The position numbers were made by a program, and so were the translations under genes. Under the pieces are notes generated by a model. It was given only the letters and a program-made list of their open reading frames with translations, was not told the origin of the DNA and did no database searches. A stretch of DNA of 64,000 nucleotides from positions 73,346,001-73,410,000 of the forward strand of contig OZ024747.1 of the NCBI GenBank assembly GCA_964016885.1. Reading direction: 5' to 3'. This document shows, piece after piece, positions 20,099 through 59,395 of this stretch (within the stretch, counting starts at the first letter, position 1; each line of letters opens with the position of its first letter). Origin of the DNA: Eledone cirrhosa. Lineage: Eukaryota.

Positions 20099-20468
20099 GG
20101 GATGTAACTTGGAGTTACTGCAGGTTCACCTCTGTGTTGAGGTGTAGAGCTATACAGAGTGTAATATATTGAAAGGATAACAAGGACGATTGATTACTCC
20201 TTCATTACATTTATTGGTAGGTGACGCGCGTTTCGCCACTGATCAGCTGAAGGTTCGATCTGTATCGATCTTACACGACTCAATAATCGGCAGCTCGACG
20301 GACCCTTTTTTTTATTGTACCATTTTAAAGGGTCCGTCGATCTGCCGATTATTGAGTCGTGTAAGATCGATACAGATCGAACCTTGAGCTGATCAGTGAC
20401 GAAACGCGCATCACCTACCAATAAATGTAATGAAGGAGTAACCAATCGTCCCTGTTATCCTTTCAATA
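20099..20468. mobile_element. Fold-back element in (TA)n with decayed HHR in each arm (family F2)
   Basis: ~145-bp arms 20164-20308 / 20325-20468; 65-nt tail 20099-20163; GAAACGCGCGUC-ACC retained, core decayed to CCGUCGA; relative at 55367-55500. Confidence 0.88.
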
Positions 20469-20626
20469 TATATATATATATATATATATATATATATATA
20501 TATATATATATATATATATATATATATATATATATATATATATATATATATACATATATATATATATATATATATATATATATATATATATATATATGTG
20601 TGTGTGTGTGTGTGTGTGTGTGTGTA

Positions 20627-20800
20627 TGTAAAAGGTAAACAGAAATAACAACACAATCGGTACAGTATATGGAAGGTATATATTAGGTTAATGCTTGATA
20701 TAGCAGGAAGAGGGTCTTAACGTTTCGGACGCTAGTCCTTCATCAGAAGAAAGAATGAGAAATAAAATATATTAAGTGTACGGGCGGGGTGGAATTGGAA
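20627..20800 (-). mobile_element. Solo PLE-like 3' end (family F3)
   Basis: Carries an intact minimal HHR; bounded by (TG)n/(TA)n. Confidence 0.7.
20715..20750 (-). ncRNA. Minimal type I hammerhead ribozyme
   Basis: UCUU-CUGAUGA-A-GGAC uagc GUCC-GAAA-CGUU-AAGA; palindromic AACGUU stem III. Confidence 0.82.
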
Positions 20801-21307
20801 AATATATATATATACTGAGGGAGAGGGAGACTGAGAGAGAGAGAGAGAGAGAGATAGATAGATAGAGAGAGAGAGAGAGGAGGGATATAAACCTGGGTGG
20901 CCGTTGGCGTATTTTTCATCTTTGTCATTATATATATATAAATACATTGTAAAACGGAGAAACATGAAACTAGAAAAATGCACTAATATGCAGATGCATG
21001 CATTAAACATGTAGATATCCAGTGGTGCAATATAGTATATCGCAGAAGCAGATCTGAAACTCGACACCCAACAGAGCTTCTGAGCGTTAACAATTGAAAT
21101 GTTTCACTGTTCCATTCAATAAAGATATATTTCAAATGACATAACAGCATTAGCCGTTGTGTAATGGAATATTGGACAGGAGCATGAAGAGATTGTATAC
21201 ACTGACGTCAACAGAACATCGAAAAATATTGTTGCTTCTATTATATAATGAGTAATTACCTATCAAGTATTAATGCTTTGTACATGTAGACAAAATATTT
21301 TCTATTC

Positions 21308-21395
21308 GTACATGTGTCTGTGTGTACATGTGTCTGTGTGTACATGTGTCTGTGTGTACATGTGTCTGTGTGTACATGTGTCTGTGTGTACATGT
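21308..21395. repeat. 16-bp tandem repeat GTACATGTGTCTGTGT, about 5 copies
   Basis: Direct reading. Confidence 0.9.
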
Positions 21396-21489
21396 GTGTG
21401 CTCATATATATATATATATATATAGAGTTGTAAATGTGCATTTACATATAGATCTATTATATATATATATATATATATTTATATATGTT

Positions 21490-21693
21490 TAGTAATTCCG
21501 TCGGAAAGGTCCAGGAAAAAGAGTGCTCTATGTAGGTTACAGAGCTTAATAGTTATATTACTATTAAGTAATATTTAATAACTATTAAGCTCTGTAACCT
21601 GCATAGAGCACTCTTTTTTCCTGGACCTTTCCGACGGAATTACTACATTTATACAGCTCCAACCGGGATTGATTGAAGCATATTCTATATTAC
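21490..21693 (+). mobile_element. Fold-back element in (TA)n (family F4)
   Basis: ~67-bp arms 21490-21556 / 21578-21645, ~48-nt tail; no HHR core retained. Confidence 0.82.
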
Positions 21694-21778
21694 ATATATG
21701 ATTGGTACTTTCCAGCCCGATTAGTTAAGCACTCTACAGTTTTCAGGAATTTAATAACTATATATATATAATATATGT

Positions 21779-22641
21779 ATACGATATATTAACAAATGGA
21801 AACTATATTTATAAAACCATATTTATTTCATTATACATATTTCAAGGACACCAAGTTAAATTATGGTGTGCTTTCATCATATAAAATATAATATAGATCA
21901 GTTTTATAAATAAATATTGACATACCCTTAAAGAATGCGACCATTTCTGTTGGAAGCTACCGGATAGTGGGGTTATAAATTTATTTATACTATTATGCAA
22001 ATTAGTGTCGGATATCACAGTAGATTTAAAATAAGCCGTTGCGGTATGGAGAGAGGGAAAGAGACAAAAGAGAAAAAAGAAAAAAGAAAAAAGAAAAAAG
22101 AAAAAAGAAAAAAGAAAAAAGAAAAAAGAAAAAAGAAAAAAGAAAAAAGAAAAAAAAGAAAAAAGAAAAAAGGAAAAAGAAAAAAAAGAAAAAAGAAAAA
22201 AGAAAAAAGAAAAAAGAAAAAAGAAAAAAAGAAAAAAAGAAAAAAGAAAAAAGATAAAAGAAAAAAAGAAAAAAAGAAAAAAAGAAAAAAAGAAAAAAAG
22301 AAAAAAAGAAAACAAGAAAAAAAGCAGCTTTAAGAGGAAAATAAGAAAACAAGAAAAAGAGAAAGAGAGAAAGAGAAGAAAAAGAAAAGAGAATGTCAAT
22401 ATTTATTTATAAAACTGATCTATATTATATTTTATCTGGTGAAAGCACAGCATAATTTAACTTGGTGTCCTTGAAATATGTATAATGAAATAAATATGGT
22501 TTTATAAATATAGTTTTATAAATATAGTTTCTATTTGTTAATATATCGTATTTTTACTCCAATAATTTGTTGAATGCTTTATATCAGTTATAAAAATATT
22601 TGCTTGTTGTATCCCAACAATTTAAATAGAACTTCTACATT
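21779..22641. mobile_element. Fold-back element (family F5, copy 1) with (AAAAAAG)n in the spacer
   Basis: Arms 21779-21923 / 22393-22551; tail 22552-22641; HHR with one core change per arm (AUGAUGA; CUGGUGA at 22436-22442); homologous to 34789-35176. Confidence 0.85.
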
Positions 22642-22749
22642 TAATATATGTATATATATGTATACATATATATATATACATATTATATATATATATATAT
22701 ATATATAATATATATAATATATGTATATATATATATAAATATATATATA

Positions 22750-56708: not shown

Positions 56709-56852
56709 ATGTTGTAGCTATTGTTCCTGTTGCTATGACTGCTCCTGGTATTTTTGTTGTTGCTATTGTTCCCGTTGCTATGACTGCTCCTGGTATTTTT
56801 GTTGTTGCTATTGTTCCCGTTGCTATGACTGCTCCTGGTATTTTTGTTGTTG
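56709..56852. repeat. 45-bp tandem repeat, about 3 copies
   Basis: ATGACTGCTCCTGGTATTTTTGTTGTTGCTATTGTTCCCGTTGCT. Confidence 0.92.
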
Positions 56853-56894
56853 TAGGTATCACTTCTTTTCTTGTTGTTGTTTAACCCAAGTTAC

Positions 56895-56948
56895 CTCTGG
56901 TGGAGCGTTCTCGTGATTAAAGACATTCAACAATAACCGTATCTTCTG
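56895..56948 (-). CDS. Candidate micro-exon (51/54 nt, phase 0-0) (Q)KIRLLLNVFNHENAPPE
   Basis: Minus strand ctctattctatatacatTAGCAG acceptor (NAGNAG) and GAG|GTAACT donor; frame-compatible with exon 28-126. Confidence 0.5.
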
Positions 56949-57399
56949 CTAATGTATATAGAATAGAGTGTACTATGAGGGAGACTTGTTACTCTGAAGG
57001 GAAATTGTAGGTAAACTAAACAGGTAAACTAAACAGGTAAACTAAACAGCAAGAAACAAATGTCTATTTATCTTTTTCAAATTGCTAATGTGTATATTAA
57101 ATGGATTTTCTTCTATTTAAACGAATCTTATATATTGCCGTGGAAATTGCGTTATGTTTAGGAAGCAACAATATTTTACCCATGTAAATGTCGATAAAAT
57201 TACTTGTCAGTATTCCATGTAATAAGATTTATTGTTAAGAACATAATTAATTGTCAGATTTAGTTAATACCGTTAAATTAATTCACATTAATTATTAATG
57301 TGTCCTTATAAATATTATATACACTGATAACCGTACCTTAACTAGGTATTATAATTATCATTTCCTTGAGAATAGTATTTAACATAAATATAGATCCAA

Positions 57400-57588
57400 A
57401 TAATTGTTTCTACGTTAGGCACAAGGCCAGCAAATATCCAGTGCATTACAGGTACTTTATTTTATCGACCCCGTAAGATTGAAAGGCAAAGTCAACCTCG
57501 GCGGGATTTGAACTCAGATCGTAAAGGGACGTAACTATGCTGGACAGCATGGCGTCCGACCCTCTACCGAAACTGCCAATCCACCGCA
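57400..57588 (-). mobile_element. SINE family B, full length
   Basis: tRNA-like head, GAGTTCAAATCCC B box, conserved core, GCCTTGTGCCTAACGTAGAAACAATTAT end. Confidence 0.88.
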
Positions 57589-57719
57589 AATAATGAAACT
57601 TCAGACCTAGTATAAAAATATATATAGTTAAACTTAATAGTGAAACGAAATTATTTAAATTTAGAATGAATATCTGATCAAATGAAATAGAAATACAAGC
57701 GATAATGTAACTCTCCTTT

Positions 57720-57903
57720 GGATATGTTACAGGTGGATATGTTACAGGTGGATATGTTATAGGTAGATATGTTATAGGTAGATATGTTACAGCTAGATAC
57801 GTTATAGGTAGATATGTTACTGGTACATATGTTACAGGTAGATATGTTATAGGTACATATGTTATAGGTACATATGTTATAGGTAGATATGTTACAGGTA
57901 GAT
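57720..57903. repeat. 15-bp tandem repeat GATATGTTA(C/T)AGGTA, about 12 copies
   Basis: Direct reading. Confidence 0.92.
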
Positions 57904-57917
57904 CTCCAACAAGCTAT

Positions 57918-58000
57918 CTGAGTTCAAATCCCACCGAGGTCAACTCTGACTCTCATCCTTTCAAGGTCGATAAAAATGTACCAGTGTAGTACTGGGGTTG
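57918..58000 (+). mobile_element. SINE family B fragment
   Basis: GAGTTCAAATCCCACCGAGGTCAAC...TCATCCTTTCAAGGTCGATAAAA. Confidence 0.75.
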
Positions 58001-59395
58001 ATTCTTCCTCTATACCTTTTTAACACTTCAATTCTCTCACTCTTCTGTGTTCAGACTTGGAGTGAAGATAAGCTCCACCAGGTTTAGATATGCCATAGAA
58101 ATACCGTATGTCGATACTGCGTCCCTACGATTCTTCCAGAGTTACGGGACCATGCATGGATCCTTTAATTAACTGTAAAGTCAAATTAAGCAAATATATT
58201 TGCCAATCATAATGCTATCACCACTGAAGTAATAAAGAATACTAAACAAGAAATATACTAAAACAAAGGAGAAAACAAGTATATTTAAACTCTTAAATAT
58301 TTCTTAATGAACATCTTGCATAAAAGTTCAAATTGTAAAAACTGGTATGTCTACATCTAACGTAATGTATGTGCGTGTGTTGTGTGTGTGTGTGTGTGTG
58401 TGTGTGTGTGTGTGTGTGTGTGTGTGTGTGTGTGTGTGTGTGTGTGTGTGTGTGTGTGTGTGTGTGTGTGTGTGTGTGTGTGTGTGTGTGTGTGTGTGTG
58501 TGTGTGTGTGCCTGTGTGTGCATATATATATATATATGTATCCATATATACATATGTATAGAGTTACTCCATCATACCCATCATGTATTCCTGTGGTCTG
58601 TGAGAGGAGTGCACATGCGCTCGACTGTGGGTATGTGAATGCGACCTTGTGGGCTTGCATGTGTGTGTATTTAAGTATATTGACATCTACCGCAAGTGTT
58701 TGTCTTCTCCCCAAAGTGTCAGTGTGTGTCTAACCTTATCTGCATGGATGATATATTTGTTTATGCTCTGATAACCTCCCACTAGCTTGCTAATGTATGG
58801 CTTATTTATGTGCATGTATATACATTCCTTCCCATTAATACGTTGTCTCTGCTTGTCTTTGTGCCCTGTGTGACGCAATATTACATTACACATCACGTGG
58901 TACTTACCCTTATATTCCTGCTTTCTACTGAGGGTGGCTTTATACTTATATATATATATATACACACACACACACACACACACATATATATATATATATA
59001 TATATATATATATATATATATATATATACATATGTATACATACATATATATATATACATATATATACATATATATATACATATATATATACATATATATA
59101 CATATATATATATATATACATATATATATATACATATATATATATATACATATATATATATATATATATATATATATATATATATATATATATATATATA
59201 TATACATATATATATATATATATGTATATATATATATATATATATATATATATATATATATATATATATGTAGGAGGTGAGTTTTATTGTAGTACAATAA
59301 AGCAATGCAGATATCGGATAAGAAGCACTCTACAGTTTGTAGGACTGGAGTATACATAATATAAGATCAAAAGATGGTTAAAGGAGTTCCATGTA

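Follow-up and report, generated by a model that had tools for sequence, protein, structure and literature searches.

A doubled leader hairpin as a probable start signal for reverse transcription in Hydra-clade Penelope-like elements

Penelope-like elements (PLEs) are described as lying in (TA)n, with an arm, an inverted arm, and an extra tail between the flanking repeats (PMC8557442; PMC3846280; available text of both). The origin of these tails and of the inverted pseudo-long terminal repeats (pseudo-LTRs) is stated as open in the text of PMC8557442. Here we describe a hairpin motif, usually doubled, in PLEs of the Hydra clade, starting from a stretch of 64,000 nucleotides (C7:73346001-73410000, hereafter the window) of a microsatellite-rich animal host genome of 3.0 Gb. 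The window contains about 12 inverted repeats with (TA)n on their flanks, plus three GIY-YIG frames.

The closest described group is the Hydra clade itself (Craig et al., 2021; PMC8557442). As given in the available text, it shares with the elements described here a C-terminal GIY-YIG endonuclease with CxCx5C and no CCHH, the RW and DKT motifs, a hammerhead, the (TA)n target, inverted 5'-truncated copies, and a tail at one end. That paper attributes a tail of 30-40 bp to endonuclease-mediated resolution, whereas tails in the host families measure about 55-110 nt and are bounded by twin hairpins. Such hairpins are visible but unremarked in three of its six new consensi, and the word "hairpin" is absent from its main text.

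PAc, a Poseidon PLE of Anolis, has been studied in vitro (Frangieh et al., 2024; PMC11167929). Its available text reports features that match what is observed or proposed here: two internal starts of reverse transcription that flank the tail downstream of a hammerhead, an AT-rich target, cutting and extension of both target strands, a predicted dimer, and a requirement for RNA 3' of the start. In PAc, a single AC-rich stem-loop within the open reading frame (ORF) contains the starts, which do not depend on homology (PMC11167929); in the Hydra elements, by contrast, they would lie in the 5' leader, each ahead of its own hairpin copy, with a microhomology of 1-3 nt. The two starts are mapped in this sole in vitro study, which does not state what determines them; its text gives no repeated motif and no link to inverted ends (PMC11167929). 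Tail, inverted copies, and, for one Poseidon PLE, two internal starts are already known. In LINE-1 twin priming, both target strands prime complementary DNA (cDNA) on one RNA, leading to an inversion; annealing of the second primer is fortuitous, and each cDNA covers a different part. In the elements described here, unlike LINE-1, both starts appear to be fixed by a signal, and the cDNAs overlap, yielding inverted repeats. Non-LTR retrozymes (10.64898/2026.07.22.740005) resemble the short copies in being PLE-derived, hammerhead-bearing, and devoid of an ORF. They form tandem arrays, whereas the short copies described here are mostly truncated and inverted, with inner junctions that vary, and the words tail, hairpin, and stem-loop are absent from the available retrozyme text. 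A conserved or doubled hairpin at PLE ends was not found described in the literature searched, including the available text of PMC2377424 and PMC13282606, with subscription papers and Repbase notes outside the scope of the search.

Unit layout, fixed ends, and clade

In whole copies of a young family, the unit reads ORF, 3' untranslated region (UTR), hammerhead, ~46 nt, site 1, H1, site 2, H2, 45 nt, ATG. H1 and H2 denote the first and second copy of the hairpin, and sites 1 and 2 the copy-end positions just before them. The hairpins are spaced 90 nt apart in this family; in general, the hairpin usually comes as two copies ~60-90 nt from each other, downstream of the hammerhead ribozyme and upstream of the ATG. 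H2 is complete in four host families, the young family and those of L031, L164, and L061 (such labels denote DNA stretches fetched for comparison with the window families). The young family is rich in open 821-aa frames, and its unit measures ~3.7 kb because the 3' UTR spans 1.1-1.3 kb, which exceeds the typical, non-diagnostic Hydra size of <3 kb. The window contributes the following insertion:

59269..62884 (.), inverted insertion of a Hydra-clade PLE (by sequence features) in (TA)n; the tailed arm lies at the left and reads on -, the ORF and the untailed arm read on +
59269..59355 (-), tail, spanning sites 1 to 2; tandem copies continue into H2 and ATG
59325..59351 (-), H1, ACTC-CA / TG-TA-GAGT, loop 11
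59396..59462 (-), type I hammerhead motif of the tailed arm, a pattern match; predicted cut after 59402, ~50 nt before H1
62781..62847 (+), the same hammerhead motif in the untailed arm, core and stems matched; predicted cut after 62841
59756..61731 (+), ORF for reverse transcriptase (RT) and C-terminal GIY-YIG, 5'-truncated, in two frames with a frame change near 61135; CxCx5C, CxxC, CxH, no CCHH

Copy ends are fixed relative to the hairpins. In the young family, 30/37 untailed ends leave the leader sequence 4 nt ahead of H1 (range, -7 to +1); tailed ends lie 3-10 nt before H2 in 31/31. Since untailed arms end before H1 and tails before H2, the tail corresponds to the H1-to-H2 interval. The two kinds of end are combined with regularity: among inverted insertions of this family chosen by protein similarity and with both ends visible, 18/19 pair an untailed end with a tailed one (p=4e-5 versus a coin toss). 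The longer arm is the untailed one in 8 and the tailed one in 10 of these 18 mixed insertions; in L168, the untailed arm is longer and contains the entire ORF. Arms within one insertion diverge by a median of 6 substitutions per kb (17 pairs, two involving a run-on copy), compared with 26.5 between insertions (109 pairs), which indicates that they share a source; an origin from different source copies is rejected by the same figures. A closer relation between tandem copies than between inverted arms was unsupported (p=0.8, 6 tandems). Among 46 double-ended insertions, 17 show an interruption in the flanking (TA)n, which is repeated on both sides in 8 of the 17, and target duplications measure 11-16 nt. 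At both junctions, the 3' end of a sense copy meets target DNA, so both are most simply read as first-strand starts.

Judged by protein motifs and architecture, the fold-backs with the motif are Hydra-clade PLEs, and Hydra features occur in every motif family that could be tied to a frame. They are endonuclease-based in the window (59-62 kb), L033, L070, and L119, and drawn from the N-terminal start only in L031, L164, L336, L337, and L061. A single ORF combines RT with a C-terminal GIY-YIG domain (821-aa frames in family copies), the GIY-YIG match of the window frame (E=0.008) lying below the Pfam cut-off. The CxCx5C linker, the lack of CCHH, and CxxC and CxH around the catalytic E and N are found in the window, L033, L070, and L119, with the L070 translation ending ahead of CxxC. 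RW(T) at 46-48 and DKT at 132-134 are conserved in the alignment, L031 showing RWR and DKT. A predicted canonical hammerhead is located in the pseudo-LTR (62781-62847), and insertion is into (TA)n.

The hairpin motif, its covariation, and its occurrence

On the messenger RNA (mRNA) strand, the motif reads RCTC-NN-loop-N'N'-TN-GAGY, with ACTC as the 5' strand of a bulged hairpin. The loop has 3-65 nt, the 2-nt bulge begins with T, and GAGY is mostly followed by AC or GC. In 22 distinct host variants, anchored by sequence only, inner pair 1 is kept in 22/22 and inner pair 2 in 20/22 while taking the forms CA/TG, TG/CA, CG/CG, and TA/TA; the outer pair alternates between A-T and G-C. Relatives in metagenome contigs (an alignment of 44 relatives; the best 78 of 434 loci, with Hydra-type ORFs) behave alike. 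Among 48 non-redundant metagenome hairpins, the inner pairs are kept in 46, 36, and 37, with permutation means of 36, 20, and 20 (p<=0.0002 each; the counts are sequences, not independent events), and pair 4 and the positions below the stem show no significant covariation. With the bulge letters not demanded, the first bulge base is U in 58/59 and in 19/19. A figure of 98% paired (0/500 shuffles) was rejected as circular, most rows having been chosen by pairing pattern, and is not relied on.

By sequence, a bulged pyrimidine would follow a paired base and precede G-C and A-U pairs, reminiscent of the arginine-sandwich bulge of HIV-1 TAR and 7SK, with which a paired purine, the bulged U, and the G-C and A-U pairs are shared; there, this pattern forms a U-A-U triple and an arginine pocket (PMC6189040, available text). 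The present hairpin is circularly permuted (GAG helix at the stem base) and of unrelated origin, and the likeness is one of resemblance only.

The occurrence of the motif was assessed in 110 stretches of 10 kb (1.1 Mb), 20 beside the window and 90 regularly spaced elsewhere in the genome, the window itself being left out. A strict scan returned 83 motifs versus 4 on the reversed sequence, with (TA)n located 40-135 nt downstream in 70 and upstream in 38. Independently of the motif, a motif-blind detector located, in the same sample, arms flanked by (TA)n, matched each with its inverted counterpart, and determined where the two diverge. Its 149 calls were reduced to 93 asymmetric ones (56 symmetrical), to 85 after removal of 8 low-complexity calls, and, after removal of a further 22 without a (TA)-closed tail of 40-170 nt, to 63 copies that form 29 clusters; a handful of these clusters, being chance pairings or shifted calls of a single family, were scored as misses. 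RCTC lies at +0..+12 of the parting point in 17/29 cluster representatives (ACTC 11, GCTC 6), compared with a mean of 2.4/29 and a maximum of 9 in 2000 shuffles and with 0-4 across the seven control windows. In 12/29 clusters the hairpin is complete, versus 0.07 in shuffles.

An earlier note on this DNA had described ACTC, with a GCTC variant, 3-8 nt past the short-arm ends of sequence-unrelated families, as the opening of a tail hairpin and part of a conserved element-encoded structured signal that sets the boundary between pseudo-LTR and tail. The observation is confirmed and such a signal supported, with an enrichment beyond chance (17/29 clusters). The offset was drawn too narrowly: 11 of the 17 fall inside it, and at copy level offsets range from 0 to 11 with a mode of 5. 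ACTC proves to be the local form, and GCTC/GAGC is usual elsewhere (55/59 outer pairs). The families are not unrelated but members of one clade, the Hydra PLEs. The tail hairpin is real; missing from the note were a second, similar hairpin, which marks the far end of the tail, and the location of the signal in the 5' leader of the next unit.

Metagenome leaders point in the same direction. There are 52 motif matches, overlapping ones included, in 19 kb of sense leader, 4 in antisense, and 0.10 per kb in ORFs. Leaders with an ORF start and at least 150 nt upstream contain the motif in 32/43 (sequence-only anchors; shuffles 0.68); grouped into 38 clusters, 18 have two hairpins, 12 have one, and 8 have none, with H1-H2 spacings of 59-83 nt. 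Second copies stop 2-11 nt before H1 or H2 in 15 of 25 rows (2 of the 15 at a contig end); among the remaining 10, 7 with (TA)-only anchors, 1 with an indel, and 1 with a contig end at +9 were set aside, and 1 stops at +25. A model made from 30 hairpins yielded 61 matches in 45 other metagenome loci, some of them close relatives of its training rows; 57 matches are sense and often paired. Applied to the window, the hairpin model recovers the expected sites and, in addition, 21589 and 21545. By eye, the complete motif occurs in the published consensi Hydra-2_Amil, Hydra-1_Ajap (twice), and Hydra-2_Ajap (PMC8557442, File S7), which come from coral and sea cucumber. Six 9-letter words for the 3' half of the hairpin occur 8 times in the 584 kb supplement of that paper as available, 4 times in Hydra hairpins and 4 times elsewhere without hairpin context.

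ACTC/GAGT as hammerhead stem III was rejected: H1 is outside the ribozyme, 45-64 nt past the hammerhead GAAA (metagenome loci with both found, one mis-anchored row excepted), whereas Hydra hammerhead stem III, often actc-n-gagt, follows GAA with a loop of 0-3 nt within the ribozyme (File S2). An Rfam search of the window gave miRNA-like chance matches only, none at gathering score among the 150 matches listed; a search of 8 metagenome loci gave one chance match and nothing relevant, and no ribozyme family was matched in either. The viral contigs searched held no relative. A geminivirus-like TATT|AC nick was rejected, as the second T is not kept by the short arms.

Start sites of copying and alternative explanations

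We consider it probable that the twin leader hairpins of Hydra PLEs each hold one subunit of an RT-endonuclease dimer, as predicted for PAc, and that reverse transcription starts a few bases 5' of each. A tandem (or circular) RNA would be bound at H1 and H2, and the GIY-YIG domains would cut both (TA)n strands with a stagger of roughly 11-14 nt. Each 3' end would pair via 1-3 bases with the AU-rich stretch ahead of one hairpin and prime cDNA; the two cDNAs would stop at different 5' points and then join head to head, giving (TA)n, tailed arm, untailed arm, (TA)n. Small fold-backs would represent the same event with early truncation. One start per hairpin, one RNA, and two linked active sites would together account for the tail, its length, the pairing of unlike ends, and the freedom of either arm to be the longer. 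A wider version is possible but tentative: the twin hairpins may be a portable start signal, a TAR-like bulge gripped by each subunit of a dimeric RT related to telomerase, that programs twin priming on one RNA. It would explain tail, one-sided ends, and inverted arms throughout the clade, from corals to molluscs; other clades would employ doubled elements of their own in this way, and any RNA provided with both hairpins might be written into (TA)n.

Several observations weigh against start-setting hairpins in this form. L144 is an exception with two untailed ends, and assembly polishing or gene conversion could contribute to the similarity of arms. The RNA strand is not favoured over the cDNA strand in folding, minimum-energy folds miss the hairpin at most window sites, and certain hairpins are weak by themselves (core pair probability of 0.07 for the young-family H1 and 0.27 at 31867). 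The bias of G-U over A-C is slight, 9 versus 3 in the inner pairs of metagenome hairpins, plus 3 outer A-C, and 4 versus 0 in the host. RCTC is absent at +0..+12 in 12/29 clusters, two of which are Hydra-type with TCTC, and 11/43 metagenome leaders lack an anchor pair. Among the published consensi as available (PMC8557442), reading by eye shows a degenerate motif in Hydra-1_Crog and none in the tail-less Hydra-1_Amil or in Hydra-1_Obim. The 20157 family has a degenerate H2, and the H2 of the 52068 family lacks its pairing partner, although tails of the latter family nonetheless have a fixed end point; strict H2 patterns for these two families gave one duplication and no match, and looser patterns revealed run-ons. 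In the insertion at 21479-21759, the short arm stops just before H2 (21656-21732, decayed), and the long arm ends ~25 nt past H2. Finally, non-Hydra PLEs in the same genome make two fixed ends without the motif.

Alternatively, the hairpin could act in DNA, the GIY-YIG domain recognising single-stranded cDNA or a donor copy, nicking nearby, and trimming the arm, which we regard as unlikely. The Penelope endonuclease of D. virilis required the tail to recognise and cut plasmid DNA (cited in PMC11167929, available text), the cDNA strand folds about equally well, and site 1 is AT-rich like the target, with an unrelated PLE inserted at site 1 of a motif family (L330). A plain duplex site is argued against by the variable spacing of 3-65 nt, the inner covariation, and the fixed 2-nt bulge. 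A self-folding cDNA is disfavoured because it cannot make the untailed arm the longer one, as found in 8/18. Both ends are moreover joined to target DNA with a duplication, and H2 never appears in the end that it marks.

Fixed ends would also be compatible with defined RNA ends if the hairpins caused the RNA to be cut or terminated a few bases upstream of them, with RT starting at true RNA 3' ends by ordinary target-primed reverse transcription; RNA-seq read ends of PAc coincide with its start sites (PMC11167929, available text). This explanation is quite improbable, as PAc started internally on templates with extra 3' sequence (same source), a lone RNA end would not easily account for an untailed and a tailed end drawn from a shared source (18/19), and the Rfam searches matched no ribozyme family. 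That a single tail-primed cDNA folds back, copies itself, and stalls at the hairpin (an RT pause), leaving a shorter arm, is highly improbable and already strongly disfavoured: near-identical arms and inner-junction palindromes, taken as self-priming in the available text of PMC3846280 and present here too, would suit it, but it demands an untailed arm that is never longer (8/18, once with the whole ORF in L168) and leaves H2 at the tail end and direct tandems ending at site 1 (52976-54068, L165, L177) unexplained. Among the functions proposed at the outset, a priming structure fits, in keeping with copying that starts ahead of each hairpin, and a GIY-YIG nick on cDNA or an RT pause fits less well.

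Other insertions of the window and significance of the hairpins

The further inverted or tandem insertions of the window are:

31738..31938 (+), short inverted insertion; H1 31867-31892; family in L164 continues through to H2 and the start of a Hydra-type ORF
35194..35356 (+), short inverted insertion, related family; H1 35285-35310
34787..35175 (+), inverted insertion; H1 35093-35112; family in L031 continues into H2 and a Hydra-type ORF
21771..22644 (+), inverted insertion, group of 34787; H1 at 22556, GAGT mutated to GAAT
51940..52129 (+), short inverted insertion; H1 52068-52088; family without complete H2
52976..54068 (-), direct tandem, tailed then untailed copy; H1 53501-53562, 46-nt loop
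20098..20465 (-), inverted insertion; ACTC 20157-20160; 3' half of H1 lost here, intact in L336
21479..21759 (+), inverted insertion absent from the earlier note; H1 on both arms (21589 +, 21545 -)
8164..8311 (-), inverted insertion; GCTC-type H1 starting at 8237
45158..45306 (-), inverted insertion, family of 8164..8311; GCTC at 45237, 3' half decayed
50336..51510 (+), inverted insertion; this copy has lost the 5' half of H1, which L186 retains intact
10455..12086 (-), control, an inverted insertion of a PLE that encodes a CCHH-type endonuclease (10916-11602), fixed at both ends and lacking an RCTC hairpin

At the eight sites where ACTC had been placed 3-8 nt past the loss of the other copy into (TA)n, it is present in 8/8, and the GAGT(G/A)C partner is found at all of the five places (5/5) named for it. 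At 22556 and 20157, ACTC holds while the partner is mutated or lost in the window copy, respectively. The 53559 site has its ACTC, pairing with GAGC over the 46-nt loop, but is no fold-back, being a direct tandem (52973-53473 / 53568-54068). The exceptions 10519, 37549, and 38246 are all three real: 10519 belongs to a PLE family with a CCHH-type endonuclease, two fixed ends, and none of this motif, and 38246 to a family without the motif. Overall, the interpretation first given to these sites is partly supported.

The ends of 21479-21759 are shifted by one register, and its relative L061 has no third hairpin there before its ATG. Direct repeats of pseudo-LTR-only or tail-only units occur at 52976-54068 (595 nt) and L329:1300-1700 (~85 nt, three times), possibly through re-reading of a short or circular template. 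At 37421-37549, a palindrome has a microsatellite at its centre and no tail, and no second copy was seen elsewhere in the DNA compared. The motif is lacking in two tailed fold-back families at 38014-38293 and 23090-23346; past the tail end of both, ATGCAAAT, which we take to be an octamer-like promoter word, is present (run-ons L103, L202, L174). A CCHH-type PLE at L330:1500-1560, which is the same locus as L052:4270-4340, terminates exactly at the AT-rich site 1 of a family with the motif, 8 nt before the H1 of that family; site 1 may also be a DNA target, or the junction may reflect a template switch. An apparent H2 past the 10519-family tail in L052 was rejected, as it is really the H1 of another family, ahead of which the 10519 element is inserted.

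A second young PLE family (33852-34301, L220, L231) has copies 98-99% identical and 784-aa frames with DKG and C-terminal CxxC and CCHH, and is Neptune-like. Other repeats comprise a Tc1/mariner-like fragment (9859-10463) with 111-nt terminal inverted repeats and a helix-turn-helix frame at 10052-10474, and, by eye, fragments like the C-terminal part of LINE reverse transcriptases at 5668-6396 (in Pfam, a weak DUF6451 match only) and 26608-26988. A 57-bp minisatellite (15 copies) and long simple-repeat arrays occupy 36079-36933, 27031-27398, and 12541-13209, and further dispersed repeats lie at 34297, 39510, 48491, and 57398.

Within the limits of the search, the hairpin is a new cis element of a known kind of retroelement; it is real and occurs across the clade. 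The twin hairpins likely tell the enzyme where copying starts, which would explain the lopsided ends of Hydra-clade PLEs, and a short, covarying, doubled RNA motif at a fixed distance to each end makes the mechanism directly testable. In repeat annotation, the hairpin can serve to mark the ends of Hydra-clade elements; provided that the sample is typical, the 83 strict copies in 1.1 Mb correspond to roughly 2e5 in the whole genome. As a predicted partner, it would also offer a defined RNA for the structure of the RT family closest to telomerase.

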